From Cystobasidiomycetes sp. EMM_F5 (lineage: Eukaryota): 64,000 bases of DNA. Below, in pieces: positions 16,061-63,606 of the stretch (position 1 is its first letter; each line of letters starts with the position of its first letter). The notes beneath the pieces are model-generated. The model was not told the origin of the DNA. It worked only from the letters and a program-made list of their open reading frames with translations, and searched no databases. The stretch covers positions 124,001 to 188,000 of the forward strand of contig JBPGPT010000006.1 of assembly GCA_051047955.1 (NCBI GenBank), in the 5' to 3' direction. Both the position numbers and the translations under genes were made by a program.

Positions 16061-18466
16061 ACGGAAAGCCCTCGGAGCCGGAGTTGGCTGGAGCATCGTT
16101 CGGGACGAATGTCATCTTGTTGTGTTTCTTGCGGCGACGTTTGGCATCTGCATTGTCGTTGTTGTACGGCTCGTACCAAAATGAATTCACGTGTATCGCA
16201 GCGTCATACCAGTCGAAGCGTTCTCCGCACTGTCCGCAAAGGAAGTGTCCGCAGACGTCAGCAAGGAATGGAGACTTCGATACGATTGTAGGCGAGGGTT
16301 GACCAGCGGCCTCCATGGCGGTGCATAAGATAGAGAATTTGTCGCTGTACGTCTTGTTATTGGTTACAGACTCGAGGGTCAGAGACCTGGGTCTTGTCCC
16401 ATTGGATGTAGCGCAAACCTCGGGATCGAGACTGGTGTAGGTAGACTGTCGGCTGACCTCGCTGTAGCAACGCGAATCGTAAATGAGGCGCTTCGAACTT
16501 GCAATGAATGCCGAATGACCTACCAAAAACAGGAATGGTCCAATACTGTCGGATATTGAAGCGTTGCGCGACAGGATTTACAAGTGAAGATGGTGCTAAA
16601 GTTTGCAAATACTGAGTAGTCGGAGCCTCTGAACCTGGCTTTAGATCCATACATCTGTGAGCGAAGATTCAGCTTTGGTGTTCAAAGCAAATGACCAACA
16701 CTTACTGCCCGCAACAACTGAAGTTGCCCTGGCGCGTGATGTCAGAAAACTCAAGCTACCCCGTGTAGGCGGTGTGCAACTCACACGTCCGAACGAGATT
16801 ATCCATCTCCGTACAGATTTGCGGCCACTTTTCGGTCCAGACTGTCTTCGCGACGTCCGAAGCCGTTTTGTCCGTCACCTCATCCATGAAAACCATTACG
16901 CTTGGTAGCTGACAGATGTCCACCATCCTGTTCTCAAGTTTGCCAAACTTGGCTTCGAGATCTGCCTTGTTTTCACTGGCAAGGAGATGGTCCAGGACTC
17001 GCTTTCGCTTGCCGGCGTGAGCGTCGTAATCTTCGTCGAGAAGACGCTTCTCCTTGTAAGGATCTAGGCGGTGGCGGGCCTTCTCGAAGTGCTTGCGTAC
17101 TTTAGCAAAGGTCAAGTTACGGGACTAATGGAAGGCATGAGAGACATGACCTGTGACGCGGTTCAAAACGTACCTTGACCGCAATCTCGTCCCTAGCATT
17201 GCGTATGTCCGAGATAGAATAGCCGTTGTCGAGAGCGAGACGTTCGAAACTTTCACGTACAGTGTTGGATTAGAACGTAGTATATTCGACCAAAAGCCAG
17301 AAGGCTACTTGCCTCTTCCGATTAATCCGCTCAATGGCATGGATTTGAGCTCGTATAACGGCTTCATAGCCACCCTGCCACACCTTCATCTGCCACACAC
17401 AGTTCTCACGTGCCCGCTCGCGTGCGACTCTGTCATCGAACCAGGCATTTACAGTATTCGGGCTGCTTGTAGCGGAATACGCTATTCGAAAATATTCCTC
17501 CTTCAATCGCTCGCATGAGGACAGATCGATGCACCGAAGCGTCGAACGGCTGGGTCTGCGGCCGCCCTGTTCAGGTAGAATAGTCCAGAATCTGTTATCA
17601 ATGAGGTCCTGTTCTTCCTCCCACAGTCGTTGTATCTCTGAAAATGTGACGAGCCTAGCATAGGCATGTTACATATTTTGAGCTTTAGAAGTAGTGCCAG
17701 CCAGACTCACCTCGGATCATCACAATAGATGCAGTATACAAGGGAGAAATGGGGGTAGTAGCTACTGTCGACAGGCTCGTGGCATGAGAAGCACTGGCTC
17801 TTGAGCCAATCAGTTCCGCGCAGTGAACACTGTGGAAATACGGCTTCCGCCATTTGCTGGGCAGTCGTGTCAGCGTAAAACGTACTGTATCGCCCAGGTG
17901 CCTTAGATCACACACCAGTTCACTCCAGAAAGGTGCTGGATCGGGCAATGATCGATCTAAACCATGGTCTTCATCATTATCGTTATCATCAACTACCGCA
18001 ATATTAGCTGTCGACCTGTCGTCCTGGAGAACAACGGCTCCGGTGTTTCTGGAAGGAGACGGACGTTTGCCTAGACGGATCTTGCCGCCGTGATCTATCC
18101 AATACGACAGCGCCTCCCTCGCAGTCTGCCAAACTGGTTGAGACCGTTTCGACGTTAGATAAGCGCGAATAGTGCGATTAGTGCGAGCGACTGGCGAAGG
18201 ACGCGGAGATTAGTCTGTAGTCGCTCTGCCAGCTGTCGTCACTTACGGTGCAGTAAGGACTTGTAGTGGCACCGCGAGAAGATGTCGACCAGGATATCCA
18301 TTGGGAGTCTCGAAAAGCGGTCTCCGTCACCTATCACAGCTTTTGTATCGTGTGACTTGTCGACTTGCTGGCCTTGTCGCGATTTCCTGGTATTTGTTTT
18401 GGCAGTCTCGATGACGCGCTCTTTTTTGGCTGGCAGACTTCCAGTTGCAGTGCGAGTGGTCACCAT
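16053..18466 (-). CDS. F-box domain protein, paralog 1 (multi-exon)
   Basis: MVTTRTATGSLPAK start; FSRLPMDILVDIFSRCHYKSLLH|LARTNRTIRAYL...VWQTAR F-box motif; C-terminal FLCGQC...H. Confidence 0.8.
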
Positions 18467-19783
18467 GATGGAAAATCGGTCAGAGGGGACGGTATGGAAT
18501 GTAATGAGCTGATTATGTCGACGTTGGGTGGGTGTTTTGTATAGATGGATTGTAATCTCTTCTTAGAGTCCCAGCTGAACTTTGAGGATTGTCAACGAGC
18601 AGGACAGCCGTAGACACACAGCTGACTGGCGTATTGTCCAGCAGCACTCAGCCTGGCGGATTCATTGCGCTGACCGACTGAACATCAGTTGTTCGTGTCG
18701 AGCTGTCCCCAGCGGCCCGGCCGATGGGCAACCGTAGTGGACGCACGGGCCGCCTGATGCCGTCAGGGCACGCCAGGGGGCTGCAAGGCAAAGGAACGAT
18801 TGCATGGATCATGACAGCACATGCATGGCGTGCGTAGATGGCTAGTAGCCAGCAAAGCTAGACATGATTCAAACGATTACAGCACAATTTGCGGAGAAAG
18901 CAATTCATCAAATCTTCCAATCTCGAGCATGCCTCCTTGCCGTATGCAGGGAAGTCAGCCATACTCCTTCTACCCTGATCTACCGATATGAAACGGTGTC
19001 TTAAGCTGGGTTAGCCAAGAATCCGGACAATCGTCCGTAAGGTGATTCGCCCGCATCTTCCAAGACGAGTCTTTAGTAAAATACATGCGAAACTCATCTC
19101 GTCATGCGCTTCGACATTCGCAAGCTGATCTGGACGAATCCATCGTAACGTTTCTCTTGCGGTTTTTGTTTGACGTGATTGCGCTAGGCCGCCAATGGTC
19201 TCTGATGAGGCTGGCGACACAAAGGTACGCGAAAGACAAGTCATGTACCTCATCTTCGCGATCTTCACAACTGAATCTGCCTTTGTTGGCGGAAGTCGTG
19301 GTAGATTCGCCGTCGGTTGGAACAGGAAAACAAGCGGCCTCTAGGATATCGTAAGGATGCGGAATCGGCCAAATGTCTCCTTTGCTTCACACATAAGCAT
19401 TGAAGTCCAGTCTAGCAAGCCTGTTGCCGAGCCATAAAGCGCTGAGAACGTATTACAGAATCCAACGCATTTGCGCCATGACTGTAATTATGACGGATAT
19501 CGAGAACGCGTCCAGGTCGTATAAAATGTCGAGTCAGCATCTGTTTCAGCAAATAGTGCAGCATTTGTACTTACAACTGTCCTGCATACTGCGATGTCAG
19601 CTTCATTACAAATACCGCGCTCTGTAAAGCTTATGACAGCTCACGGTGTTTGCATGCGATCAAAGCGTGAAGATGATGCGCCGGGTTTTCCGGTTGCTCG
19701 AGTGGCCCCCGGTTCTATAAGCGGTTCTTGCGTCGTCGCGGTGCAGTATTGCATTCGATATAATGCTATGTGCGAATATGTGT

Positions 19784-21017: not shown

Positions 21018-23401
21018 TCAAGCTGGGATCTCGTCAACAACAAAGACCATCTTGCCGTGCTTCTTGCGGCGGACCCTTGCATCGTCGTCATCGGCGGAAG
21101 GTACCGCGATGAAACTGTTGATATGCTCATACGCGCCAGTCCAGTCATACATGTCGTCGTTGGTTGGACAAAGGCTGCATCTGAATCTGCCGCCGAGATC
21201 GGATCTTGAACAACTGATTTCGTTGACTGGTGCAGGCCGCCCAGCCAATTCGAGGGCTTTGCAGAGGCGCCGTATCTTCTCGCTGCCGGCTTTGTTGAAC
21301 TGTAGCTTCTCAAAATTGAGTGGACCAGGCCTCTTCGAGGCTGACCAGCCAGCCATGCTAGCCGGATCTAAGTTGCTATACTTTTTGGTCCTCTCTGTTG
21401 TACTGGACGCATGCACGTCGCGTCAGCACAAGAACCTAGAGGTTGTGTTCCCAACTGTTGAACTTACCTGAAACATCCGTGTCTGAGTAGCGAAGGATAG
21501 CGTAGGCTGTTACTTGCTACTCCAACATAGCAACGTGTACACTGGAAGACACAGCTGATGTGGGAAAGATGAGCGAAGTCCGCTCCCATTCCTTCGCCGT
21601 CTTGGCCTGGCATCTTGAAAGAAATCTCAGCCAACTACGCACAACCATTGTCTCTGTCAACTTACGAGTTTCGCAATCGATGTTTGCCCTGTTGCGTAGT
21701 CAATGACTGTTCGAGAATAGTACGCTACCGGATGAAGCACTCACAACCTGTAACAAGAAGCTCAAGCTCCGTTGCAATCTGGGGCCACGCTTCATTCCAT
21801 AAATGTTGAACCTTGGTAAAAATTGGTTCCTCCTTACGTGCCCGAAGGAAAGCTGCAACATTTGGTACTTGGCCAATATCCGCGATCAGGTCATCAAATC
21901 CTACAAGCCGCTTGACCACAGCCGCAAGGTTCGGAAATTGACTGGAGTCAGGCTCGGCATCGGACGTTACAGACGCGCGAATGAGGTCTTGTAGCTCATC
22001 CTCGTGGTCCGTTATTGCGTCGTACACTTCGTCGCTGATGCGACCCACTTTGAACTTTTCGAGATTAACACGATGTTCTTCAAAGAACTGGCGAATTTCC
22101 TCTTTCGTCATAGGACCTTCCTGCAGGACAATGAACAACCTTCAAGTAGATGTGGTGCTTGTGCAGCAGCATGTACTCACCGAAATGATCACGTACTCCA
22201 GGGTGTTGCGAATGTCGGAAACAGTATACTCTTCCGCAAGTGCAAGATCGATGAAACTTGTAAAAACTTGAGCCAGCCGCATCGTAATCATGAAGACGTT
22301 GACTAACCCGTTACGATTTGCAGACCTAGTCGCTTGCCTTTCTGCACTCCTGATCTCTCGTTGACCGTTTCGCCATGAACTTAGCGTATCCATTCGCTGT
22401 TGACGCACGCTCTCAAACAAGCGCTTTTCCATAAGCCAGGCTCTGAGGTGGGCCGGATTGCCAGATGCCATAGATTCGACTGCATAATACTCCTCTTTCA
22501 ACGCCTCGCAGTCAACAAGACTAAGAAACTCGCGTGAAGTACGACGCGGCTCGCGTCCACCACTTCCTGGAAGTATCGTCCATAGTCGGCTATCGATAAG
22601 ATCGTCTTCGCACGCCCATGTTTTGCGCAGAGTTATGTAGGAGATGTACCTTGCGGATCGTAATCAGTGTAGCACAGAAATGAACCTGAGAATTCGACAT
22701 TACTGACTTTTGGCTTTCGCACGGTCTGCAAAGATTGTATATAAAATTTGGCTGGTGATGGACGGAGAGGAGACAACCACAACCCTCGCAATTGCCGTGA
22801 AGCCAGCTTTCGACTCCATCTCTCGAATCGCAGAAAGCTGCTTCGGCCAGTTGCTTTACGTACGGTCAGTGAAACCTGTTGCACTTCACTGGACAGAGCA
22901 CAGACTTACCATCTCAGACCAGTAGGGGCCAGGCTCTGGCAGCTCGAGCTTTCTAGGGTGTCTGCGATCTTCGTGTGCTTGTTGTGCTTCCTCTTCTGTG
23001 AAAAGCGCTGCAAATTTCCCGTTGAGGTAAACACTCCAGAAAGTTTGACCTTGTCTGGCCATGTGCCATACAGCCTGAGATGTTTCGATGAAAGATAGGC
23101 CCGAATAGTACGATTGGTACGTGCGACTGTAAGCGTTTAGGATTGCAAGATTAGACGCTACACTATGAATGAAATTGAGGCTTGATGACGTACGGTGGAG
23201 AAGTGATTTGGGATGACAGTGACTGAAGATGTCGACGAGAACCTCCAGGGGCAGTCTGGATATCTTGTCATCCTCTCCAACGACAGCCTTGGAGTCATAC
23301 GGGATGCTTGCCTGCTGAGATTTACCGCTTGTTTTGGCAGTGAGAACGCGGCGCTCCGGCCTGGCTGGCAAGCTGCCAGTGGCTGCTCGAGTGGTTACCA
23401 T
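21018..23401 (-). pseudogene. F-box domain protein, paralog 2 (apparent 1-nt frameshift)
   Basis: MVTTRAATGSLPAR start; ISRLPLEVLVDIFSHCHPKSLLH. After intron 23127-23193 it reads TCG AAA CA TCT CAG versus TCG AAA CGG TCT CAA in paralog 1. Confidence 0.65.
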
Positions 23402-23987: not shown

Positions 23988-26371
23988 TTAAGATGTTTCT
24001 GGACTTGGCTTGTTTTCATCCGCGATAAAGTCAACTTGGTCATGTTCCGTCCAAATGTGTGCGAGAGCGGTATTCCAAGTGAAGAGATCACGACCTGGCG
24101 GGCACTGTTGACAGCTGAATACACCGCCCAACGCACTTCGACTCAACCGCATATCGGTAGTCGGTGGAGGTTGTCCAGCGTCCTCCATAGCCTTGCACAG
24201 TCGCATGATTCTGTCGCTCTGGCTCTTGTTGTATAGCACTTGAAGATTCACCCTCCAAAGTCTGTCCTGACCAGCGGGCGTAGCAACATTGATCGGCTGG
24301 GCTGTGCCAGAGGCCATCTTCCTCTTCATACTACAAAAGGAGGCATGCGCTTCCTGTCACTATATATTCGCCACGATATGATGCGACTTACCAGAAGCAG
24401 CGGTGATCGAGCAGTGTCGGATATCTCAAGGTCGTCTTATTGCATTGCGCGCACGCAAAAACCGTACTGAAGTGGGTTAATGCGGCGTAGTCGCTCTGTG
24501 ATTTCGTGCTCCGAGCCATGCATCTGCTTAGCGTATCAGGCAAGCGTCCTCCATTGTCTATGAATTGACTCACTGCTCGAATCAGTTCCTTTTGCCCTAT
24601 TTCGAGCCACATTGCATCAGCAGCAGCTCCGAACCTCATGCCTATTGCTCTCACATCTTTGATTAAGCAAGCGTATTTCCTCGGCTATGTCAGGCCAGCT
24701 GTGCGCCCATATCTCTTCCACCTCGTCCAGATCATCAGTCTCGGTCTTTGCAGCCAAGAAGGCCTCGACAGAGGGCAGGAGACAGATATCTACCATGCGA
24801 TTAGCCAGATGACCAATCATAGTCGTAATTGAATCGAATGAAGGCGTTCCCGAAGCAGAACTGGCTATGATTCGTTCTTGGATACGGGTGCGTCGATATG
24901 ACTCCTGAAAGTAAAGTTCATCGGCCTCGCGATGTTGCTTGTACTCGTCAAGCATATCTTGATACTCTTCGTAAAGGTCTTGCGCGGTCGTCTCGCCAAA
25001 CGGAACACTCTGCCGTGCCGCTGCTTAGTCCAAGCTCTCTGCTTTAAATTGTCTGGATCAGTTCTTGAACTCACTGGAATTTTGATATAACGAAGAACAT
25101 TATCAACATCCTCTGCCGCGTAGCCCCGTTCGATGATACTTTCGATGATGCTGTCAATCAGCGTAACAGTAAGCTTCGCTGCGATCTGAAGCAAAAGGCA
25201 CAGGGAAACAAACGTCTGCCTGTTGGCTTGGCGGGCGCCCTCAGCCATGATGGTAAAGACTTTTTCATACGTCTCGGTCCAGAGTGCAAGCACATCAAAT
25301 TTTGCGTTTCGCTCAATCTCCACTTGCGTTTTTTCACTGAACCATTCATCGATCTCGCTTGCGTCACCGTGAACTCTCGCTTCAAAATGAAAAAGCTCGT
25401 CCCTGAGCTCTTCGCACTGTGGCAATTGAATCCGTGCCGTTTGTCCGTGACCGCCCGGTAAGCAGCCTCCAGGGAGGATGTTCCAGAATCTTTCGTCGAT
25501 AGGTTCGCCATCACCTGCCCACAAAGCCCGAACCTTCGTAGCGGTTTAAAGTCCCCTAACGCATCCCTTGTAAGATATTCGCACATATCGTTGCATACAT
25601 CGTAACGTACTGAGCTTTGCAACTTCTGCATAATATGAGACTGATCGTCACTTCGTGATGGTATGGTAGCCATGCTCCGCACCATTGGCAAGCACCTCTG
25701 AGCCAAGCATTGTCAGGGCCTTTGGACCAGCTCAAGAAGGCGACCTCGGCCAATTGCGGCAACGTTTGAAGAGTGAGAGGATGTACAGAGACATGACATG
25801 ATGCGCCATACCAGCTCAGACCAGAATGGCGACGGATCAAGGAGAGTAAGAGGTGCTTTGGAATTCCATTCTTGGGTAAATATTTCATAACCACTTTCAT
25901 AATCATCGTGTTCACCGACGTCGGTGTCATCATCGTCAACGAATGAGTCATACAGGGTGCGTATCACATTCAGTGGCTTTGGACTGTCGCCAAAGCCGGC
26001 CCAGTACTCCATCCCCATTCGCGCTGCTTGCCACACCGGTTTGCTCTTCTTCGACGCCAGGTATGCTCTGATTGTGCGGTTAGTACGAGCGACTGCATGT
26101 AGCATGTTCAGATACGTGATTTGTTCCTGCGTGCGGGACAGCCGAACTCACGATGGAGTAGGGACTTTGGATGACATCGACTGAATATCTCGACCAGTAT
26201 TTCCAGAGGCAGGGTAGAAAACTTGTCGTCTTCACCGACGTTTGCTTTTGGATCGTGAGACTTGTCAATCTGCTTGACACGTCGCGCTTTCTTGGTCTTT
26301 GTTTTTGCGGTTTCGATGACGCGCACGGGCTTCGCTGGCAGACTGCCAGTCGCAGCACGGGTTGTCACCAT
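23988..26371 (-). CDS. F-box domain protein, paralog 3 (multi-exon)
   Basis: MVTTRAATGSLPAK start; FSTLPLEILVEIFSRCHPKSLLH|...ARTNRTIRAYL...VWQAAR; CQWC...CRSC, FACAQC and FSCQQC Cys motifs. Confidence 0.8.
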
Positions 26372-26931
26372 GGCAGAGTACGTATATGGTATCAATCCAT
26401 TGAAAACGCGTAAAGACGAGCCAGCTGCAGACCAAGGCTGCGTGCAGGGAAGGTCAGCAGGCTGCGGTTGCTAACGACTCTGCTCGAGCGATTAATATCC
26501 TCGGCAGCCCGTTAGCGACACCATAGAATGAGTCTACTGTATCGTGTCTGTTGGTGCGCAGCCAGCCCATGTCTAGGACTGCGGTGCGCAGTGCAGCTCC
26601 TGAGACATAATTTGCCACAAGCACAAAGGTCCAAGCGCTACAATTATTTCCCTAAAACGAAACAATCACAATCTACGATACATAGTAGACTTCCAATCTG
26701 CCTCGCTCACCGATGCGTGAGCAAAACGCCAAAAACCGTTCCTCCTAATTGTTGATTAGCCTCACCGCATCATCATCGCCATTGTTTATGCTGCTTATTG
26801 CTGTTTCATCCCTTGCCCACCACTCAGAATCCTACTATCCCCCGTAATCCATTGCACTTTCCAATCACGGCAGCCTTTCTTCCGCAGCAGCAGAGTCTCA
26901 CCTAAAAGTCAACGCCTCATCATCGCACCTG

Positions 26932-48111: not shown

Positions 48112-49044
48112 GGAGGTGCAGTCGATGCAGCAGAACAAAACAGACGCAGCCATGGTGCAGGACACTAAATCAACTCCGAGACCTGCGTGCGATATTGCGC
48201 TGAACGGCTTTCGAGTCTCGTCAATTTAGCGAGCGCGGTCATGAAGAGCTTGGAAGAAGTCTTGAAGAGCTTCAAAGGAGTTCTAAATGGACACTGCAGT
48301 CCCATCCATGTGCCCATGTTGCGGTATACTCATTTGAACATGCTTTGGTCATCTGTAAAGAATCTGCAGCACAAAACGCCTCAATCAGGCACCCTTACAT
48401 CGTACGCTGCCGGCTGACATGACTTACCCCAATCATTGCTGAGCGTCAAATTGGCTGGCCCTGAGCCATTATCCAAAGTTGTTTGATCGAAGCCAAATCC
48501 CCATCGACAGGAAGCATACATTTGCTTCGCCCAGTGCGCCTGAGCGGCATCGAGACCAGCAGTATGAGCTTATATTCTAAGGTTGTCCGAGCATGATGCG
48601 AGATACTGTTTGAATGGCTTGGCTTCCTCTGCTCCCAAGGTCTCCCAGTCTGTTTGCATGCAGAATGAATCCCTTTCTAACGTAGCGGCGCCGGTCCGAC
48701 TCTGACACCCAAACTGGGACTGTGCTGGCGCCATGGTCCTCAATTGCAGCACCCGTTCACTTTCGTATCCGTCCACACACCATCGAGGGCACAAAGCATT
48801 ACAGAATCAATCGGCAAGTGTGTCCCACGCAGACAATCCCGTCCACTTCCTCATCGTCTCCGTTTGGACGTCGAGACCCTACAGGCCGCCACTCACATCT
48901 GCACTGTAGCTTTGTGCATACAAACCGCAAAGCATAGTGAGTCATATTCAAATTATCGCATATCTTTTGCGGATCTTTGCTTACTAGTCGTACTAATTTG
49001 CGGCAAAGACTCGCCAAATTGTCATCATCTCGTTTTCAAGAGCT

Positions 49045-49808
49045 ATGGATTCGCAATCTCCGCCTGCAAGCGTCGTATCAAACGCTCGTACCGTCGATGA
49101 TGACAACAGCTTGTGCGGAGACGATACATCAAACGACCAGGAGTGTCAAGCTTGCATAGACGACGACGCACCTTGCGATGGCATCCCCCGCAAAAAGCTG
49201 GCGAATGGCCAAACCAAAGCAAGTCGCTGTAAACGATGTGCCAGAATGAGGTTGCGGTGTGGTCAGTTCTGGTCACTCCAATGCCTTTTAAGAAGCTAAC
49301 AGATCTCTCAGTTGCGCATGTCGAGTCCTCGTCAAGAAAGCGTACGCCCACTCGAGCCAATGGTAACGAAGACATTGCAAAGACGTGGGAAACACAGGAT
49401 GACGAGGATCGCCCTGCACTTCCCGCCGGATTCGTAAAGCAATGGTCAACGCAGGTCGACAATGCAGTCGCGGAGGTGAAGGCTTTGCGCAACATTTCCA
49501 CTACAGGGCTGGCACGACACATTGTCGACTATACAATTGACAGCATGATGAGTGAAGCAAATGCCATCAGCAGAGCCATCACCGACGCCAATGCCAAAGA
49601 CTGGCAGTCTGGCAACGACCGCGTAGCTTCGTTCAACATGCTCCTAAGGAGTCATCAGGACCCAGTGACACTCAACCTCGCTTTGAACCTCAAGATGCAG
49701 CTGATGGAGGCAGAGCTCGACAAGTCGCGGCGTGAAGCGGATATCCGAGACAAGGTCACAATATCGAGTGCGTTGGAGCGGGCGGAGAACAATGGAAGCG
49801 GGCCGTAG
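49045..49808 (+). CDS. Small protein with divergent Zn(II)2Cys6-like cluster (about 237 aa, intron 49262-49311)
   Basis: CQAC-x6-C-x17-CKRC-x6-C; a GT-AG intron with CTAAC branch point joins the two ORFs in frame. Confidence 0.65.
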
Positions 49809-50354
49809 CCCTGTAGTCCTGGCTGTGGTAGTTATTTGTACACGAATGCAAGCTGCTCGATTGCTTTTTGCTTGCAGGTCTGATGACTGACTGATCTGCA
49901 ATAGCGCAGGCCAGCTGGACAATCGCGCAGCCTGCGCTATTAGGAGTTGGTGCAAATGTGTATTTTGGTGCAAAAGTGCGTTTCCTCGACTGCTTCTAGA
50001 TTCAAACCTTCATTCAATGTAAGCTTTAGTTTGAGCAATACTTCTGTCGCCATATCCCTTTGCCTATCTGTTTGCGGTTCCCGTCCGGTATCCGGTGCAG
50101 AGTCGAGACCAGCGTTACGCGACGCTCGCTGTTGGAACAACTCGATGAAGCATGAGGAATGATTGCTGAACGACAGTATGACGCAATGACTATGCACACT
50201 GCTGAACTGGCAAGAGAACTGACTCGCTATGGAGCTTGCTAGCGACTAACCACTGACTGTAATAGTGAGTGCGTATCTCGGCAGAGTAGCCTGCAGTATG
50301 CTGAGTCGGGTGTCTGTATGCTTTGCTTGACAGTACAGTCCATCCCCTCGTCTG

Positions 50355-50630
50355 TCGGCTAGTCGGCTTAGCTGACTTCAAGCCATTCAATCAACCATCT
50401 TCACGAATGACAAGTCATTCAATCAAGGTCAGTACTAACAATCAAAGTCAATTAGCACAATCAATCAATCATGGCTGATACTGTCAATCACTTGACAGAC
50501 TCGATCCTGTCAATCAGTCTGGCAAGCAGAACAGCGGCTGTCAATCAAGATAGGCTTGATTGCTGGTGTCAGTGTGAGTGATGCCTAGGAGTGCAAGCGT
50601 TGAAAACATCGCTGATACTGTTGATTGTGA
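50355..50630 (+). repeat. Diverged repeat, copy 1 (hairpin plus intron-like unit 50428-50498)
   Basis: AGTCGGCTTAGCTGACT hairpin; GTCAGTACTAACAATC...GCTGATACTGTCAATCACTTGACAG; similarity to copy 2 continues downstream. Confidence 0.7.
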
Positions 50631-50949
50631 TGACAGCAATGATGACGGTCTGCAGTGCCGGACAGCCGTGGCATGCGGCAGGCGGTGGCTTTCTAGAAGT
50701 CATGGCAGAAGAGGCTGGATTGGCATTAGATGGGAGCCCGTAAAGCTAAGTAGATGATCTGTCTTGCTCAGAGGGCAGATACTGCTGAAGCACGGTTAAT
50801 CATGCTTCGCTTTGCATTCACAGCTGTCGACCGTCCAGACATGCAGTTGATGTGTCTCGCAGCACTAAGTAGCAGTCAACACTGGAGTCTACACAGCTGC
50901 AGTGGACTCTACTAGCTGCGGCTATGGCAGATGGAGCTCTCGATAGCCT

Positions 50950-51200
50950 GCTGGTAGTCAGCTTAGCTGACTTTCAAGTCAATCGGTCAATCATTCAGAG
51001 TGAGCACTGACAATCAGTCAGGTCAATCACAATCACCAATCAGTCAATGCTAATACTGTCAATTGATCACTCAGATCGACTGCCATCTATCAGTCTAACA
51101 AGCAGGTTGACCCCTGTCGACTACTGCAAGCATGGCTGACGGAAGTAAAGTGAGCGATGATGGACTCGGACGGTTGAATGCTTGTTACTGATGATGAAGT
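50950..51200 (+). repeat. Diverged repeat, copy 2 (hairpin plus intron-like unit 51000-51074)
   Basis: AGTCAGCTTAGCTGACT hairpin with perfect 7-bp arms; GTGAGCACTGACAATC...GCTAATACTGTCAATTGATCACTCAG. Confidence 0.75.
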
Positions 51201-51500
51201 GTGTTCTGGACAGTATACATTCCACTAGGTACTACTCACTTGACGACTAGCTTGTACACAGCTATCAGCAGAAGAAAGGAGCCGCACCGGACAGACAAGC
51301 AAGGGAAGCTGAGTAGACTGGGTCAACACGCTCGTTGAGCAATACTATCCATCAAGGCTGATTATATTTCTGCTCATATTTACAGTGACTTGATCATCAG
51401 CATCACGCCAGGGCATACGGCGCCGCGACAGCGAATCGATAGGATGGGTAGGCATCCTTTTGTAGATTGGCAAGACTGACTGGCTTGCGTGAATGCTAAA

Positions 51501-51608
51501 CGTTTGCAAGTGTTCAACGTTTGCGAATGGATATCGTATGCGAGGGTAGCCGTTTGCGAGGTCTGACCGTTTGCCTATGCTTATATTTGATCTGGCTGAC
51601 TCGTTTGC
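51501..51608. repeat. CGTTTGC heptamer array with about 17-bp period
   Basis: CGTTTGC at 51501, 51518, 51551, 51568 and 51602; CGTATGC at 51535. Confidence 0.8.
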
Positions 51609-52299
51609 ATTCCGTATCAAGGTATAGTCAAGACTGCATCTTAATCGCTTAATGATCCTCGCCTTGGTTGTCTACGATAGTCTGTCGTTTGCCAGCTGCA
51701 AACACCTCTGGTCGACGCACCTCGATGTTATCAGCAGTAAGTCGGGGGATTGCTGAGCAACAAAGCTGGCAGCTGATAACATGCGGGTGTGCAGTTCGCA
51801 TTCTTCAGCTGGCAGCCCTTGGAGAGGTTGGGCAAACGACTTGGAGGAGTAATCATGCTTTATTGTTGCTGAAGAATAATGCACAATGTAAATCTATGCC
51901 ATGTATGCACGACTGTATACGCCAGCTCTGAGGTGGCTCATTGCCTTTGAGTGTTTGAGACGGCTCTGTGCCGGTCTCCATTGCACAGCCGCATGGCACT
52001 TGAAGCTTGGATGCAGTACAACCCGTCACAGCATGACACGATGAATGCTGCAAACGACACGCATGATGAGCATGCCTTACGACAGCATGAATGGAGGGAC
52101 GGTTGGTTGCTGGAGCCTAAGGCGATATGCGCTGGCTTTGTGGGTGCGGTGCAATGCGTCGGTAGTCGATGCCGGTAGCTGGACACTGAGTTGGTTACCC
52201 TTTTGCTCATATACCGATGCAGCTGCCACGCTCTCTCTCCCTCTCGCATCCGCCTGCCTCACTCCGCTTCTTCTGACTGTCTTTGTCGAGTCTCTGGCC

Positions 52300-52410
52300 A
52301 ATGCTAGTCAATCAATCAGTACAGGTGAGCACTGACAATCAACCAAACAAGCAAGGCAGTCAATCAGTCAACGCTAATCCTGTCAATCATTCACACAGCT
52401 CGACTGCCAC
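52300..52410 (+). repeat. Diverged repeat, copy 3 (intron-like unit 52325-52398)
   Basis: GTGAGCACTGACAATC...CAATCAGTCAACGCTAATCCTGTCAATCATTCACACAG|CTCGACTGCCA, closely matching copy 2. Confidence 0.75.
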
Positions 52411-53199
52411 AAGCTGACTGCGACATCTGTCCATGCTAACCAGATCAAGACTGGAGCTGGCATCCATACGCAGCTGACGAGGGCTGTGCAGAAGGAAAGC
52501 TGAGTACAGCGTATAGCTGTCGTGTCGAATGGCTATGCTACCCTCAGCTGACTGTGCTTGGTCTTGTTTTGCAGCAATCTCTGAACGACTTGCTTGGTTG
52601 GTGGAAATGGGGGGCAGATGGGCAGGAGGCAAGCAGGCAAGCAGCAAATAGCAAATAGCCAAGCGGGCAGTAGGGTATGTCGCTTCATACTGCTCTCTGC
52701 ACAACCTCGGCTGACTCTGCTCAGTGTTCAAACAGACAACGTATCGGCAGTGTCGCACTGGTCACTAGCATGGGCTGTGGTGATTAGCCTGGAATGGCAA
52801 GCGAAAGGGATTCTGGGTATGCTGGATCAGTATTGATCCTTGATGGACTTTCGTGATTGCTCGCTGATTGTATAGACAACTTTCTCTCCAGTGCCGCATC
52901 CCGTCTGGTCAAGACAATGGGTCGACCGCAGCAAGAAAGCCTGAAGAGTATCGAATTGCAGAGTAAGCCGATGCAGTATTCAATCTATCTATCCAGTCTG
53001 ACAATCGTTCATTCTCCTGCAGGTCTTCTAGAACGATCAGGCAGCGGTGGTGGATGAACGAGGAAATGGACCAGCAGCTGGCACGGTAACTCTTTCTTGG
53101 TAGCTGGTTGTTGTATCGATTTCACCACGATGCATTCTATCTCGTCTATTGAATGGATTTGCCCGGACTGTCATACACTGCGATCGCTCCCTCCCTGCT

Positions 53200-54970
53200 A
53201 TGGCCAAAGGTCGACAAGGACAATGCTGTATCCGACCAACCATCTGTACGAGCAGTCTGCAATTCCTCCTATCGCTTCGCAGCATCCCTAAACCACGATG
53301 GACACCATCTGTGAGCCGCTGTCGTTACGGCTGCCCTGCTGCTCGCTGCTGGCTTCCAGGCGGTCGCACAGGGCAGCCGTGGATTCAGACAGACAACAGC
53401 TGATGGAGACGGCTTTGCAGGCGGATATTGCAGTCAGGACATTGTCACTGATGAAGACAACAAGCAGCATGGTCAGTTTCCTGATTGCAGACACTTTTGT
53501 GTTTTGTCCATCCTCTGCCCCTATGACGCGACTAGTATTCGGATTTTGAGGAGACTGATGCAAACCCCAGTTGATGATGGAGACAATGCTACTATTGATG
53601 CTGACATTCGTACTATCTACAGACAGTTGTCGCGTTGTTCAAGAAGTTCTACAGCAGTTGGATAAGCTCCGGTAGTTAGTTGCAGGGATTGCAGAGATGC
53701 AGCTGATTATCGACTCCATCACCGCAGACCTCTAGCATCCGATGCGGCATTCAAGGATGCAATTCAAGCAGTTCAAGATCTAGGCCGAGACATGGCGTCT
53801 AAAAAGATGCAAGCGCTAGCGGAGCCTGTATCGGACTCGACTGGCGGCCATGACGAGGAGATTGATACTCTAACGCACAACGCCCTTGCGGGTTTATTAA
53901 ACGGATTGACAATCGCGCTCTCCGATGCTGATCACTTCTCCACCTATTTTGGATTGTCGGATTCTGCAGACGACCAGCCGGCCAAAAAGGCCATCCTATC
54001 AACGATTACTTATATAGTCAGCTCTGCGGTCGTCGCCTGCAGCAGTCCCGTAATCCAGACACCAAACAGCATGGCGACGACTGTGTACCTGTTGCTGGAG
54101 CTCTCGGGTCAACGCAAGGGCCATGTCTTTCGACAGCACGGACTCGTCAGCTTCCAAAAGGCCGTCTTGGCCGAATCTGCTACTCTATACACCGAGCTGG
54201 TGCAGCTGAGCATCAATCGAAACTATTCCCTGGCCGCAAAAATCGATGAGCAGTTTCGCGTGCAGGCGAGCCAGGGCATCTCTGCCGGACAGTACCTAAA
54301 CAGAATCCGCAAAGATATTGTCGGCATCTGCGGCAACGGCAGTGACGTCCACGCTGTTCGTCTCATGTGTGCAGCGCTCAGCAACTACCGCAGCATTCAG
54401 TTGCTCGCATCCGACGAGGAAGAGTATGGCAAGACACTCCTCAAGGTGAAGAAGCCGCGTAAAGCAAAAGCGCAAAAGGTCGAACAGGATGAAGAGGAAC
54501 TGAACGGAGACTCGGCCCAAGTAAGCCAAGACACAAAGGTCAGCGGCAGCAACAAGCCTGCCAAAGGTCAAGGCAAAGGCAGAAGCAAAGGCAAGCGCCG
54601 GGTTTTGCTTGAATGATTCAGCTGCTAATACGTGTGTCTCGTTAGCTCCCGCAAAAGAACCAACAGGCCTCAAGACTATCACAGCTGACGATGCTGCTCT
54701 TGCCGAGCGTACTACCGTCGTCACCACACCTCCTCAGCAAGATGGGGGGGATGAGACCCTGGTCAACCCCGATTCCGTTCCGGAGCCTCAAAAAGGCAAA
54801 CGAAAACGAGATAGTGAAGACGACGGCGAGTTTGTGGCCCCCAAGCATACATCCGCTACTGCAGCGGGTGGGCCTCGTAGAGCTACGCGCGGGTCGAGAT
54901 TAAAGTACAGCGAATGTGAGTGTCGGAATGCTATGGACAGTTGAAAGGAGATTGATCTTCTATCGCAGAA
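53200..54970 (+). CDS. Orphan multi-exon protein with basic/acidic C-terminal tail (5' end uncertain)
   Basis: Main exon contains ORF 53792-54616; a GC-AG intron 54591-54645 joins ORF 54609-54944 in frame; NLS-like KKPRK and KGKRKR. Confidence 0.65.
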
Positions 54971-55865
54971 TCGCTTCTCTGCAGCTTGCGTGCCACGAGC
55001 TATTGCGCTGGCCTCTCTCTCTCTGTCGACTTCGCCCTGCCATCTCCGCTTTTTCCGGGGTATCTGCATTTTTCATCTCAAGCAACACTTTCGAACTTCT
55101 TCCTACCTCTTCAAGCCGGCTTTCGAATGGTGTATATCACGCAGCCGTCCGGGTGAGCCTGTCTGAACGATTAGCCTGCGCCTTTCAATCCAGCTACCTG
55201 TTAGATACGTTCAATCTCTGATGCAATTTATCAGTAGTGCAGAATATGCTGTGCAGCATGTACACTAGTCTGTAGCGATCCTTTGTACCATTATTCAATG
55301 CTGTGCTTCCAAGTCATCGCCTTTACCGACTGTTCTTGACCAGTCTCTTGCTCACACCAACTCGAGCTGTCTGGCAGTCACACTGCTGCGCCAAATCACT
55401 CCACCTGCAAGATACTCTATCACTGCAACATTACAAGCAATCCCTACTCATCGTCTGGTGGTGTAGACTGTTGTTTGCATCTGCGTACGATAACCTGACA
55501 ATATGACGGAGGGTCCAAGCTGACATGTCACACGTTTGTTCCCACTCCACCGCAGCAAATAACAATCTTTACGATTCCATCAAGTCTTCTATATCCCTCC
55601 CCTCCTTCGTCAGACTTGTGGTCACGCTCTCAGCATCACGCAGAGCTGGGCGCAAGTCTGACGAGGAATCACCAAACCACACGCTCTGTCACGGCTGCAC
55701 TCTCTGCATCACGCAGGGTCGGGCGTGATAGAAGCGTCTGTTCTCCTGCGCTCAACGGTTAATGAAGCGACTGGACCTCTACACTCAATCCTGCACATCC
55801 GGCTGCGTAAGTCTCGGTTGCTTGCTGTTGGGTCCGACTGTGCAAGCTGACGCGTATACAACAGA

Positions 55866-58800
55866 ATGGGAGTAGCTGGAGGGGCCAACTACTTGCGCAC
55901 ATGCAGTAGAGCTCGCAGGAATCAAACTGCCGCGGACCGCATCGAAATTCAGACATCCTCACCGACCCTCACCGACTCTATCCGAGCTTGCTGCAGAGCT
56001 TCTCATTCAAACAATGCTGGTATGTCGAGAACGGCTACTGCTTGCATGGATATTGTACTGACATCCTCGCCCACTGCAGACATCCTCATTGATGTTGCTG
56101 GCTCGTTTGGCCATCTATTCCACTCGCTCCCCAAGCAACACGGCATATTTGGCAGCGGAGCATTCTTTGCGCGGACAATCGACAGAAATGCAGAGACTAC
56201 CGAAGAAGATACTCGCAAGCGAATCAATACCCTGTTTACTGAACAAGTGAATGAAGCAGTACTCCAGCTCGCTCAGCAACTGCCACAGTCTCGCATAGTA
56301 TGTAATGTCATGCGCTCCTCTTTACGACTAGTCTAACAATCTCCATCAGTTTCTGTTTGTCGATAACAAGGACTTCGTCGGAAAGGCCAAACTCCAAACT
56401 TACTGCGAGCGACAGCAGCGCAAGGTCAAAGCTCAGCAATTTTATCGGGCTGCATATGCCGAAATCAATCAGCTGCACTTGGCTGCAGGTAAATAGATTC
56501 TATGCCGGTCCTATGTACTCGAGCTGACATGTTGCATCATCATTGTAGAAGCCTACAAGGCTCGAAGGACGGCTGGAGCTCCGATAGCCGAGGATGATTT
56601 CAAGACCGTCTACCGCCGTCATCTTCCCAAAAACAGGCAACGACGGCAGGAGAATCGCCGTAAAAAGATCCGACCACTCTTGCGCAAGCTGTTTGAGAAT
56701 GCTTGGGCGGTGTTTCGTCCACAGCTAGACACCGCACTGCTCACTCAGCAAACAGGGGCGGTTGTCTTGACAGAACATCTTAGCACAGGAAATCAGTCTT
56801 GGCGTACTGCCAACCCCCGCATAGCAGGCGCCGGTCCTCGCATTCGCCTCGTCAACTGCATCAGTGAAGCGGATCTTTCCATTTACAGCTACTGTCAAGC
56901 ATCGACACAAGTTCAGCATCGATTCCGCGTAGTAATCTCCAACGACAGCGACTATGCATATGTATTGAACGCACAGCAGCTTCAATACACCGTCTCATAC
57001 TACCGCTGGTTCCATCAGTCTCGCCGTCAATTGTCAAGCAAGCCATACACCTCCACCAGCCTTCTAGAACTCTCCAGGCAAACATCCTATTGGCCATGGC
57101 AGGATGACGAAGCAAGATGGCTGACGCTTTTGGTTGCTGGCCATGACTACGTGGTCGGAGGGCTGCTTGGCTTGGGTCTAGCAAAGTTAGCCAGTACGCG
57201 CGTCACTTGCACTGTGAGTAACCATTTCAGCAACTTTGTACAATACACTAATGTCTTTGAGTAATCAGGAGGATCTGGACACTATGTATGACCTTCTCAT
57301 CGAGCAAGAGCGACCGCTGTACCGCAGAGCGGCTTACCAGCTACAGCGCTCGTCCGACACTTTTGAAGCAGCTCTGCAAGTATTCCGTACGTTTACGCAT
57401 GTACAAGCAACGGAAGAGGATATCGCTCAAGCAACGGCAGCGCTCGAAGAAAACAAAACAAATAAACAGAAAAAGAAAAAGGGCAGTCCTCATGTCAACA
57501 TCGAGCTTCGCTTCAGGCCTTCGGCCGATGGTCACACCTCTGAGCCTCGTCCTACCCATGCGCAATCTATCCCCTACGCGAGAAGACCGTGCAAGACCGG
57601 CAATCTACATCTAGATCGCAAGCGACACCAAGCTTGGGTGTACAATTTCGAGACACCTGAAACAGATCGTCGCGATCTACTCGGACCAGATGAAGAGCCT
57701 GCATTGCGTGCCGAAGTCGAGTTTGATGACAATAAAACTGCTCGGCCTGAACGTCTCAAGCTGATGGCTGCTGGCAAAGGTTTCAAGCCAAAGGAACGTC
57801 GCGCTCAGACAGCTACTCAGATCGCGCAAGAAGAAGCGAATGCTCTTGCTGCCCTTGCTGCTGAAGATATCGCCGCCAAAGAAGATGCAAAGAATGAAGC
57901 ATCAGCTGGCGGTCGTCAAAATCTGCAAATCGTTGGCACAATCTACCCTATACGCTGCCACCGTCGCTTGCTCGCTTCCTCTCTCCAATCCTTCAGTCAA
58001 GATGGCGTCTTTCAAAAAGACAAGGCATTTCACGATCTTCTGCGCTTCCACTGCTTTTGCGTCCGCTTGGTGATCCGCAATCTCAATGCCCTATTCAAGC
58101 TGTACATGGCACGCTTGACAACTGTCCCTGCCAATGCCTTTCTCGCAACATTCCGCTTCGCGTTTGACACTTCCTCTAATCTTCAAGGCATTTATCGAGG
58201 CTTCATTCATCTACTTCAACTGGAACAGAACGTCAGATACGCCCAGTACACGGACCATCGACCGCTGGCAGAGGTCATCGAAGCGTATGCAGACCGTTGG
58301 GCTGCGATACAGAAACCTAACGCCGGCCAGGAAGCACAGTTACAAGTCAAACATGACTTGATAATGCGGCTCCGCAACATACCGGCAGATTTACTTCACG
58401 CTGCCGATGCAATAAAGTCGGACGTTCAAACAGACATTGTCATGCTTGAAGTCATCCGTGACACGCACGCAAGAGACATCTGCCGCATCTTTCCTGGGCG
58501 CACTGACGTGTTGATCGAAATTGCTCTGAAGAAGGTTCGGACAGCGTGGCTGCGTCAAGCACGTCGAGCTCCGTATATCATTACGCTCGATGGCGTATTC
58601 TACCAGCTGCTCGTCAATGACGATGCCTTCAATCCAACCGAGCTTGCTTTGAGAGATCTGCGAAAGTCTACTGTGGAGCGATTACGAGGCTGCATTCTGG
58701 AATCTGTTCATGGAGACAACGTCGACACCATTGAAAATTTGGACGACATACTAGAACCTCTCTCACCGGCAGCGCAAGTCTCCATCCGCGCCAAGCTTGT

Positions 58801-60956
58801 GCAGATTCTCATCCTGCGCAATCGTTTCGTGCCTGCTGTTCCAGACGCTGCTAGTCCTCCCACTCTCGACAGCATATTATGCGGACGCTGTACCAAACTT
58901 CAGTGTCCTGCCAAATTTGCAGTCCCTCTTTTTGGCGCTATTGGCCATGACTTTACGATAGTAAGCTGGTAAAGCGCAACCTCGGCGTGACTATGGCTGA
59001 TTGACTATACTGGCAGGACTACCAACCCAGCATGATACCATTTGATAGCGAAGCGTTATGGTGGCTTGTCAAATACGCCGCCAATCACATGCAAAACTTG
59101 GTGTCTTGGTTTCAGAAAGACTGGCTCGACTTCTCCTTGCTCTACCCATCTACCGACAATGGCGCATGCCTAAATCTGAGCAATAAATCTACACCTACGC
59201 TGCTGGAGAGCATGAATTGCTTCAATCATACGTCATACAAAGACCTGCACGCCAGCCCTGGTGTCAATCCTTGCCTCGAACTGGATCCTGCTTGGCTTGA
59301 GCGCCTTGCAAAGTGGACAGCAGCCGTAGAGAAAGTTTGGGCTATCAGAGACTCGGACAACATCCGCAGCAGTCGACTTCAGATCTTTGACGCCATCTTT
59401 ATGCACACTCTTCCCTCTGGCGAGATCTGGGCTGGTACGCTCGAGACTGATGGCGAAGAAGTAATCTTTCGGAGCATCGCCGTTACTCAAGGCTACATTG
59501 ACGACAAGCTAGTTGCCAAGATACAGCCAAAGTTACCGCGACCGCTCGAAGAATGCCGTGCCGATAGGGTGCTGGCTGAGATTCTCAAGGTGCCCAATAC
59601 ATTCAGCGACATACGGGACTTTGAGAAGACTACTGTTGTTGGAGTAGGCTATCGTCATTCGCCCAAGAACAGCCATCCTCAGAAGCAGCCTCAAGAAGGA
59701 GATAAGAATCTCTATAAAATCTTCACTACCTTACAATGGCTGTCTGGCAGACAAACGAAGCAAGACAGGAACGCTGCACCCGAGCCTGGCTCCCAATGGC
59801 ATGGACGACGCCCATTCGTCAAGCTTGCAAAGGAACCAAAGGAGGTCTCCACTCACAGAGGCCTTCCCAAGGACCTACCAATCTTGGATGCTCGTTCTGC
59901 CGACACTTTCCGCAAGGATCTCCATGCAGCCATGTTTGGTGCTGACACACCGTATGACGCGACCCTTGCTTGGCTGCCGCAAGTGAGAATGGTGGGGGAC
60001 GATCTCGGCGATGTCGCACCCAATGCTATCGCCATCAACTCACCCGCCCTGCCTCAAGCGGATGACGCCATGGAATGCGACCAGCCTGTCAATGACCTCT
60101 CCATCAACTCGTCACTCACAATGGTGATGAAAGCGAGTGGACTTCAAGAGATGATTCGAAGAGCGACTACGTACAAGCAATCACTGCGCAATCAGCACTA
60201 CATTCGCTTAGATCACCTTCGCCAACACCCTCGCTACCACACTCCTTTCTCACACGAATGGCGAATGCACTCTTTCCACGAAGAGTTGGTGCAATCTTCT
60301 ACAGCTTGGCTTACTCACTCTCACTTACGCAAGAACGAGCGTCGGGCGTATGAAGATCGATTCTATCAGCAGTTCAAGGATCTCGCATTTCCGACTCCCG
60401 AATCCCTGTCTCGTCCTATTCTCTTTGCAGTAGGCGACTCCTGTGGTTTCAATGCCAGAACAAGGAGCGCACCTCGCCATACCGCCGCATTTGCAAATCC
60501 TCTCTTCCGAGCACTCCGCAAGAAATGCATGGATAACAAGCTGCCGGTCATCTTCGTCATTGTCGATGAGGCCTACAGCAGCCAAGTCTGTCCAAATCCT
60601 GACTGTTTCAATGAGGAGCACCCTATATGGCGAGCAGGAGTTGAGTTCGACAAGCGTGGAGAGCGTTGTTTGTCGAAGAAGGGCAGAGACGTGCCGGATG
60701 AAATGGTACGAGTGGCACGGAGCCGGTATGTCATATACATCTAACTGACTCACGACTACAAAACTGATGATACTATCCCTACAGGCTCTTCAAAGCGTAC
60801 TACAAGGGCACACTAGACCAATGTCTGCGAGTTCTCCAGTGCGAGACATGCAAGACGGTCTACCACCGCGATGCTGCTGCCGGCATGAATATAGCATTCA
60901 TCGGCTGGCATATCCTCCGTTTTGGGAGGCACCCATGGCGATACGTAGAGGTATAG
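55866..60956 (+). CDS. Fanzor/TnpB-like RuvC nuclease fused to an N-terminal FEN1/XPG-type (PIN) nuclease domain, about 1602 aa
   Basis: Exons 55866-56297, 56350-56488, 56549-57213, 57269-58960, 59017-60725 and 60785-60956 join in frame through five GT-AG introns. C-terminus: TLETDG, MVGDDLG, FAVGD, VDEAYSSQVCPNPDC, CETC...HRDAAAGMNI. N-terminus: MGVAG, LIDV, FLFVD...K-x6-R, SEAD, NDSD, GHDY...GLLGLG. Confidence 0.88.
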
Positions 60957-61060
60957 CCATAGGGTGAACATGATAAAAGTGACACGCCGAGCCGCACTTG
61001 TGGTGTATAACGCTCGCGCGCAGCCTGTATGGTAGCATTCCTGTTGTAGTGTAAAGAAAG
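60956..61060 (+). ncRNA. Candidate omega-RNA (guide scaffold) of the Fanzor-like gene; 3' end unknown
   Basis: Nested stems directly after the stop codon: CCATA/GGG (60957-60964) with CCT-G-TATGG (61024-61032), and CGCCGAGC (60985-60992) with GCTCG-C-GCG (61012-61020). Position matches where TnpB/Fanzor omega-RNAs lie. Confidence 0.5.
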
Positions 61061-61190
61061 ACATTGCGGATATCTTCGGCAAGTGGGCGATACAAATCAG
61101 GAACAGCGCCATCATGATTCTATCAGCAGCCAGCAGTTCCCCCTCAACCAATTGACGGATTGGCGTACATCACCTTGAAGACTCTGCAAC

Positions 61191-63606
<2,416 letters not shown>

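Follow-up and report, generated by a model that had tools for sequence, protein, structure and literature searches.

A conserved segment behind a fungal Fanzor1 gene as the probable omega-RNA scaffold and right end of a TIR-less element

The window, by which we mean the whole 64,000-nt stretch of DNA that was analysed (G000:C210:124001-188000), belongs to an 18.3-Mb, intron-rich fungal assembly and carries a Fanzor1 gene on the plus strand (55866..60956). Its six exons (55866-56297, 56350-56488, 56549-57213, 57269-58960, 59017-60725, and 60785-60956) are separated by five GT-AG introns and encode 1600-1605 aa, with a probable N-terminal FEN1/XPG-like domain and a C-terminal RuvC domain and zinc finger; every workable splice combination (8/8) yields a single open frame that contains the complete set of motifs. 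The stop codon TAG lies at 60954-60956 and the ATG of the next gene at 61191, so the spacing of 234 bp given in an earlier sequence-only reading of this DNA was correct. The gene on the 3′ side, also on the plus strand (61191..63600, end approximate), is the host P5C dehydrogenase PUT2 (TIGR01236, E 1e-40, one exon).

In its 1602-aa splice model, the protein contains the Fanzor1 motif D-X(125-275)-[TS][TS]-XX-C4 finger-X(5-50)-RD described by Bao and Jurka (PMC3627910), with D1305, SS 1497-1498, C1501/C1506/C1565/C1568, and RD 1574-1575; the zinc finger has a long insert. The RuvC triad (D1305, E1494, D1575) is intact, and G1449 and E1494, by motif the counterparts of SpuFz1 G500 and E536, occupy columns that are invariant in 22/22 aligned relatives. 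The TNB domain is matched (homologs at E 0.0006-8e-7), and the language-model neighbours at 0.96 are TNB/DUF8286 clusters from Mucoromycota, Zoopagomycota, and giant viruses, while a PDB profile search with the protein matched no Fanzor. Outside this genome, one of 69 candidates from a metagenome scan was confirmed as a homolog (L072), and 0/33 from a viral scan. The accessible part of PMC5499597 mentions neither OrfB nor IS605 nor RuvC. Since the Fanzor keeps its triad under purifying selection, a guide RNA is implied somewhere.

The first 400 residues contain, in this order, the motifs MG, ID, DN..K, EAD, DSD, and GxDY..G..G.G, comprising acidic active-site and H3TH motifs. For this reading we assumed motif positions as in FEN1, compared with the host XPG-family genes. 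The same motifs recur in the same order in the paralogs and in the distant metagenome homolog (L072:109-5244), which has the RuvC tail too; one fragment of the C184 family reads DTD for DSD. The N-terminal piece gave no significant match to Pfam and 2.5% in hhalign, and its PDB profile found FEN-1 (1b43) as the second of two matches at a non-significant E of 2.2. Two structure models reached a pLDDT of 35-37, homolog searches returned the paralog alone or nothing, and the ESM Atlas gave XPG_I clusters at 0.88-0.90, with 5/10 agreeing. Based on the motif order, we regard a FEN1-like N-terminus of this Fanzor1 as quite probable. The order is that of FEN1/XPG/EXO1 5′ nucleases, whereas here such a domain would be joined to a Fanzor carried by a mobile element; literature searches combining Fanzor with XPG or flap endonuclease contained no natural FEN1-Fanzor fusion among the matches listed, as judged by title or abstract start.

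The genome holds further Fanzor paralogs on contigs C113 (60% identity) and C184 (41%), plus a remnant on C181. DNA similarity between the window and C113 extends beyond the stop codon and ends at 61051. Contig C215 starts with a C113-type right end and equals C113 up to the boundary base, beyond which the two are unrelated; five ends of the C184 family (C184, C253, C187, C205, and C195) share one common last base in front of five unrelated flanks. In the first 60 nt past the end, the flanks of the window, C113, and C215 agree at 10-12/60 ungapped positions. These eight right ends from three Fanzor families (one in the window, two of the C113 family, and five of the C184 family) all stop sharply, and the scaffold/guide boundary was therefore placed at 61051/61052. 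Comparison of the sister copies thus shows a fixed right end common to them. As in an omega-RNA locus, a conserved non-coding stretch leads from the 3′ end of the gene to the element's right end and is followed by a variable flank. We predict the scaffold at 60957..61051 on the plus strand; its 5′ start may lie slightly upstream, inside the last Fanzor codons. The earlier reading had proposed a folded unit of about 75 nt, whose stems were recovered but whose size has to be enlarged, since the conserved unit measures about 95 nt. An exact-pattern search of the genome for the scaffold matched just the three known ends, and an Rfam search with it found no match at E up to 5.

Between the window and C113, the core 60985-61040 is identical at 47/56 positions and the preceding 60957-60984 at 9/28 in an automatic alignment. 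The adjoining coding sequences have a pS of 0.76, meaning saturated synonymous sites, and a dN of 0.33 over 561 codons. The comparison of these rates shows selection on the non-coding core.

The central helix of the core is stem P1 (60985-60992 with 61012-61020, C61017 bulged), which encloses a small hairpin (60993-61005). All eight P1 pairs are kept in all three families, with no broken pair. Two independent double changes were found: a C-G pair is U-A in C113 and a different C-G pair is A-U in C184, while the bulged base varies among families. Comparison of the families thus shows that P1 covaries. The minimum-energy fold of C184 itself includes P1, and that of C113 lacks it. A second hairpin, P3 (61021..61035; 61023-61025 with 61031-61033, 5-nt loop), appears in the folds of the window and C184; its stem is kept, with 3/5 loop positions changed in C184. 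A candidate pseudoknot would join 61006-61011 to 61043-61048, three bases 5′ of the guide. In a hand-anchored alignment, its pairs are present (6/6) in 3/3 families, with one-sided changes and one G-U swap; in minimum-energy folds, a different long-range stem competes with it. P1 had been named beforehand, and P3 and the pseudoknot were picked after the homologs were seen.

A covariance model built from the window and C113 and run on 38 kb gave three matches, of which the C184 flank was the best (E 0.039, rough calibration), with the same P1 and P3 pairing; it matched neither the 3′ flank of the metagenome homolog L072 nor the flank of the C181 remnant. In the covariation alignment, which was fitted to the structure and includes, among its four rows, one noise hit with gaps in the scored columns, 41/41 cells were paired and two pairs doubly changed, compared with 15-53% paired cells and no double change in slid controls; 47/500 column shuffles reached the observed covariation. 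Under a random-substitution null, the probability that the 17 pairs in P1, P3, and the pseudoknot would all survive was 0.013-0.047 for C113 and 0.0004-0.004 for C184. The structural comparison comprises three distinct scaffolds. Across these three sequences, secondary structure is conserved in that P1 covaries and P3 is kept, at folding energies no better than those of shuffled sequence.

Folding energy, one of the proposed checks, gave no signal. For 60956-61034, 98/200 shuffles folded equally well (z 0.04), as did 181/200 for 60956-61100 (z +1.29), and eight further segments, including those of the paralogs, ranged from z -0.34 to +1.32; none of the 10 folded segments surpassed its shuffles. 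With energies equal to those of shuffles, the finding would fail if judged on energy alone. Another proposed check, a covariance comparison of homologous 3′ flanks, bore out the prediction, with conservation stopping sharply at 61051 and two compensatory changes but no broken pair in P1 among three families.

The sequence-only reading had described the bulged stem with its inner hairpin inside an outer stem (60957-60964 with 61024-61032), and all three are indeed present in the minimum-energy fold of 60956-61034. Were that fold the functional one, the outer stem would close the scaffold and there would be neither P3 nor a pseudoknot. Aligned without gaps, the outer stem keeps 5/6 pairs per family and has one double change from A-U to G-C in C184, but the position of the mismatch differs between families and its 5′ arm falls where conservation is poor (9/28 positions, automatic alignment). 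The outer stem also vanishes once the fold takes in the conserved 17 nt up to 61051, its 3′ arm then forming a local hairpin, P3, with which it competes. We consider an outer-stem scaffold doubtful.

The bases directly past the conserved end lead to the left boundary of the element. Positions 61052-61058 are the right copy of a 7-bp target-site duplication with its left copy at 48356-48362, and the 9-mer made of TG plus these seven bases occurs in the window at 48354 and 61050 and nowhere else. Among 20,000 random trials, the fraction with an equally long match at a fixed junction was <=0.00035. On the left, the duplication is preceded by a candidate TAM (48350-48355) whose last bases, TG, are also those of the element end, so that TAM and duplication together make up the left junction (48350..48362, plus strand). 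Comparison of the two junctions shows that the duplication begins at the first base after the scaffold. It follows from the duplication that the insertion comprises 48363-61051, or 12,689 bp; PUT2 starts 139 bp past its end. Excision would leave about 341 bp between the start of a minus-strand ORF at 48153 and PUT2.

The predicted guide (61052..61071, plus strand) consists of host DNA 5′ of PUT2. The insertion point coincides with the first base of the guide, so the empty allele would carry the matching sequence, and the proposal that the guide is taken from PUT2 upstream DNA and directed at the empty allele of this locus is upheld by the position of the duplication. The guide 17-mer from 61052 has no further genomic match under two mismatches and 49 at <=3 mismatches, compared with 41 for a control pattern; thus, the genome-wide pattern search for trans-targeting found no match better than background. 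The sole perfect target of the guide accompanied by the left-flank motif would be the empty PUT2-upstream allele. Small shares of two sequencing runs yielded short contig pieces with neither a junction nor an empty allele nor RNA ends, and we draw no conclusion from them. The geometry of duplication, TAM, and guide is compatible with TAM-dependent cutting of the empty site.

A clear duplication was present at 2/5 left sides examined, in the window and on C112. The C112 copy is 5′-truncated, and in front of it stand TTGC, 9 nt shared with the right flank of C195, and a short filler; this match amounts to 13 nt in all (9+4), with a null of 0.00025 per comparison over 10 comparisons, and the corresponding match in the window to 7+2 nt. 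At the truncated copy on C135, just ATG is repeated and no TGC motif lies upstream; its left side probably pairs with the right end on C205, via tandem dehydrogenase paralogs. Both left ends on C194, which were compared with the C113 and C215 flanks, offer no more than 6-nt duplication candidates, and searches for additional left junctions in the C184 family were negative.

The left duplication copy directly abuts captured host DNA, all on the plus strand. A first piece of 144 nt (48363-48506) is a 90% copy of G000:C210:188029-188171, 3 kb past the element's right end, and a second of 92 nt (48507-48598) is a 98% copy of C210:267089-267179, 82 kb past that end. Further in lies a non-coding 5′ region shared by sister elements (49900..52410, plus strand), which matches both ends of contig C194, contains the repeat families D1, D2, and D4, and opens with an 11-bp inverted repeat read off the sequence (49900-49910/49931-49941). 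Between the captured pieces and this region, a gene at 49045-49808 has a Zn2Cys6-like cysteine pattern by eye and no Pfam match. The second element gene, ORF A, which accompanies sister elements, has its main exon at 53666..54616 (plus strand) and four other homologous places in the genome, 3/4 of them on small contigs or at a contig end; searches against Pfam and PHROG found no significant match. Contig overlaps join both C194 ends to an ORF A contig and C119 to C113, the other links being gaps. The 5′ ends vary among copies, and beside one left end on C194 lie 759 nt that are a 97% copy of host DNA located 22 kb beyond the end on C113. Lone pieces of ORF A, the 5′ region, and Fanzor among host genes (G000:C176:48769-48984, C210:1983-2303, and C181:139525-140086) are remnants or captured fragments. 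A separate repeat of 93-96% identity with MuDR-type DNA-binding domains (PF03108, E 7e-5) is found at G000:C194:90754-94339 and C2:334104-338588, where it adjoins a JmjC-like ORF and lies upstream of the 5′ region of a sister element. An identical 11-mer lies in direct orientation in the 5′ hairpin region (49924-49934) and in the scaffold (61017-61027); it is possibly an end-recognition motif, or chance. No inverted copy of the right end was found in the window at up to three mismatches, and by its sequence the element appears TIR-less and devoid of a recognisable transposase.

The conserved end could act as DNA alone, as a single-stranded hairpin and recognition site that a transposase of rolling-circle (Helitron2, IS91-like) or unknown type, possibly ORF A, would use. 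Copying would then start at the right end, and duplications and 5′ truncations would result from one-ended transposition; an RNA role can coexist with this. Fixed right ends, variable left ends, and 7-19-bp duplications characterise the Helitron2-type Fanzor elements CRe-1/2/3 (PMC3627910), hairpins are present near both ends here (at 49900-49941 by the shared 5′ region), and the eight unrelated flanks represent new sites reached without guide matching. Both truncation points in the C184 family (L082 on C135, L128 on C112) follow TCTGC in L084 (C7), echoing the TGC of the family's right end, which hints at motif-directed termination as in one-ended rolling-circle transposition; however, C135 reads TTCGC, not TGC, at the C112 truncation point. 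Against a role as DNA alone, the helices tolerate changes of the G-U type, and the adjacent Fanzor keeps its triad under purifying selection. Moreover, no asymmetric TIR was found, and Helitron_like_N (PF14214) had no match in the genome in a search whose positive control was also silent. On balance, we consider this explanation unlikely and favour the omega-RNA reading.

CACTA/EnSpm elements have two TIRs and 3-bp duplications, and Cryptons use a tyrosine recombinase and leave no duplication. The element end in the window begins with CACTA when read on the opposite strand, and Fanzor associations with CMC/EnSpm have been described (PMC10530073), which would make the segment a terminal inverted repeat, but this is very improbable: no matching left repeat exists in the window at up to three mismatches, on the reverse strand the sequences at the sister ends are CATCA and GCAAA, the duplications are 7-9 bp and not 3, and Transposase_21 gave no match (positive control also silent). 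The element therefore falls outside CACTA/EnSpm, as TIRs at both ends and a 3-bp duplication are missing. Assignment to Cryptons was likewise rejected, with duplications present and no match to PF16787 in a search whose positive control was silent. That the segment is an ordinary 3′ UTR or PUT2 promoter with chance stems, as its shuffle-like folding energies would allow, is refuted by its conservation at copies with unrelated neighbours up to one shared base and by covariation next to saturated synonymous sites.

We conclude, with a probability of roughly 0.8, that 60957-61051 is both the right end of a 12.7-kb TIR-less element (48363-61051) and the omega-RNA scaffold of the upstream Fanzor1. 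The omega-RNA proposal of the earlier reading is thus supported at the level of sequence by the sharp end, the covariation of P1, and the geometry of the duplication. Its expression is presumed from the studied Fanzors. By analogy with these, a transcript would read through the element end into PUT2 upstream DNA and would be trimmed, as for SpuFz1 and CrFNuc, to the scaffold plus a guide of about 15-20 nt from 61052. The RNP would recognise a TAM whose last bases are TG (48350-48355) and, directly after it, a guide match, a combination expected exclusively in the insertion-free allele, and would cut this allele, with repair from the filled allele restoring the element.

In our own model, the broken right end would prime copying into the element from that side. 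Early stops or template switches would then yield 5′-truncated, patchwork 5′ ends with captured neighbouring DNA, and duplications would start at guide position 1 and could not exceed the distance at which the nuclease cuts. In the Fanzors studied, cleavage takes place 9-21 nt away from the TAM, in most cases 14-21, in agreement with the 7-19-bp duplications of the CRe elements; the 7-9-bp duplications found here would therefore need extra trimming, a job for the FEN1-like domain, which may trim flaps or ends during repair. Homing cannot explain first arrival at eight unrelated sites, so ORF A, the fused nuclease, or an enzyme in trans would be needed. A broader proposal, which we advance tentatively and consider less probable than not, is that these elements form a new fungal class that lacks a classical transposase and owes its right-end-first copying to a FEN1-Fanzor1 double nuclease together with a pseudoknotted omega-RNA. 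If true, duplications of 7-9 bp at guide position 1, truncations, and captures would be natural scars of eukaryotic Fanzor cut-and-copy, and the puzzling 7-19-bp duplications of the CRe and MCi-2 elements would also be accounted for. Among the matches listed by literature searches, none was a paper on such junction scars.

In position and size, the predicted omega-RNA resembles that of SpuFz1 from the Spizellomyces punctatus element Spu-1 (Saito et al. 2023, PMC10432273), which has a 75-nt scaffold and a 14-15-nt guide downstream of the gene. Spu-1 measures 2.1 kb and has 30-nt TIRs, a 633-aa protein, and, in the accessible account, no pseudoknot, whereas the window element measures 12.7 kb and has no TIRs, a protein of about 1,600 aa with the FEN1-like head, a 95-nt scaffold, and the candidate pseudoknot. 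CRe-1/2/3 of Chlamydomonas (Bao and Jurka 2013, PMC3627910; Jiang et al. 2023, PMC10530073) share an intron-containing Fanzor1 and intact 3′ ends with the window element, and a 3′-end small RNA is described there. Their copies include 5′-truncated ones, with 7-19-bp duplications right after the target motif and extra DNA captured behind the 5′ duplication. The CRe ends match verified Helitrons of the same genome, while none were found in the genome of the window, and the accessible parts of the two papers report no FEN1-like domain or ORF A for them.

MCi-2 of Mucor circinelloides (PMC3627910) resembles the window element as an unclassified Fanzor1 element from a fungus, without TIRs and with a variable 5′ and a constant 3′ region. 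It measures about 10 kb, encodes a 1375-aa protein, and has 11-12-bp duplications in which a fixed motif is combined with variable bases. MCi-2A, unlike the window element, contains a partial Crypton transposase (PMC3627910), and FEN1 motifs are not evident by eye in the roughly 630 N-terminal residues of MCi-2. In the reRNAs of IS200/IS605 and IS607 TnpB and of Fanzor2 (Yoon et al. 2023, PMC10711439), pre-guide bases form a pseudoknot with a scaffold loop as in our candidate, and the scaffold includes, as here, a motif shared with the target. The pseudoknot is said there to be apparently lost in Fanzor1, yet the window protein has Fanzor1 signatures alongside a candidate pseudoknot; all three solved Fanzor1 RNAs have a common 7-bp first stem-loop, and the word 'pseudoknot' does not occur in the accessible text of their description (PMC11423790).

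An omega-RNA behind a Fanzor is in itself expected. Here, a single genome suffices to read off where the scaffold ends and what the guide, candidate TAM, and empty allele are for three diverged families, so the system is testable at once. Judged from sequence, the departures from the studied Fanzor1s would be the fused FEN1-like nuclease, the possible pseudoknot, and TIR-less elements with junctions resembling aborted repair. Should aborted right-end repair hold true, the junctions would be genomic evidence on the native role of Fanzors in their hosts. For editing, a natural RNA-guided nuclease that also processes ends is of interest.

A host gene also adjoins another copy: at G000:C205:71199-71266, one copy stops exactly where a short-chain dehydrogenase gene has its start codon. 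The insertions there and 139 bp from PUT2 may alter host gene expression. Elsewhere in the window, three alike stretches (18127-18467, 23064-23282, and 26146-26372) share 73-78% identity and are probably tandem paralogs.
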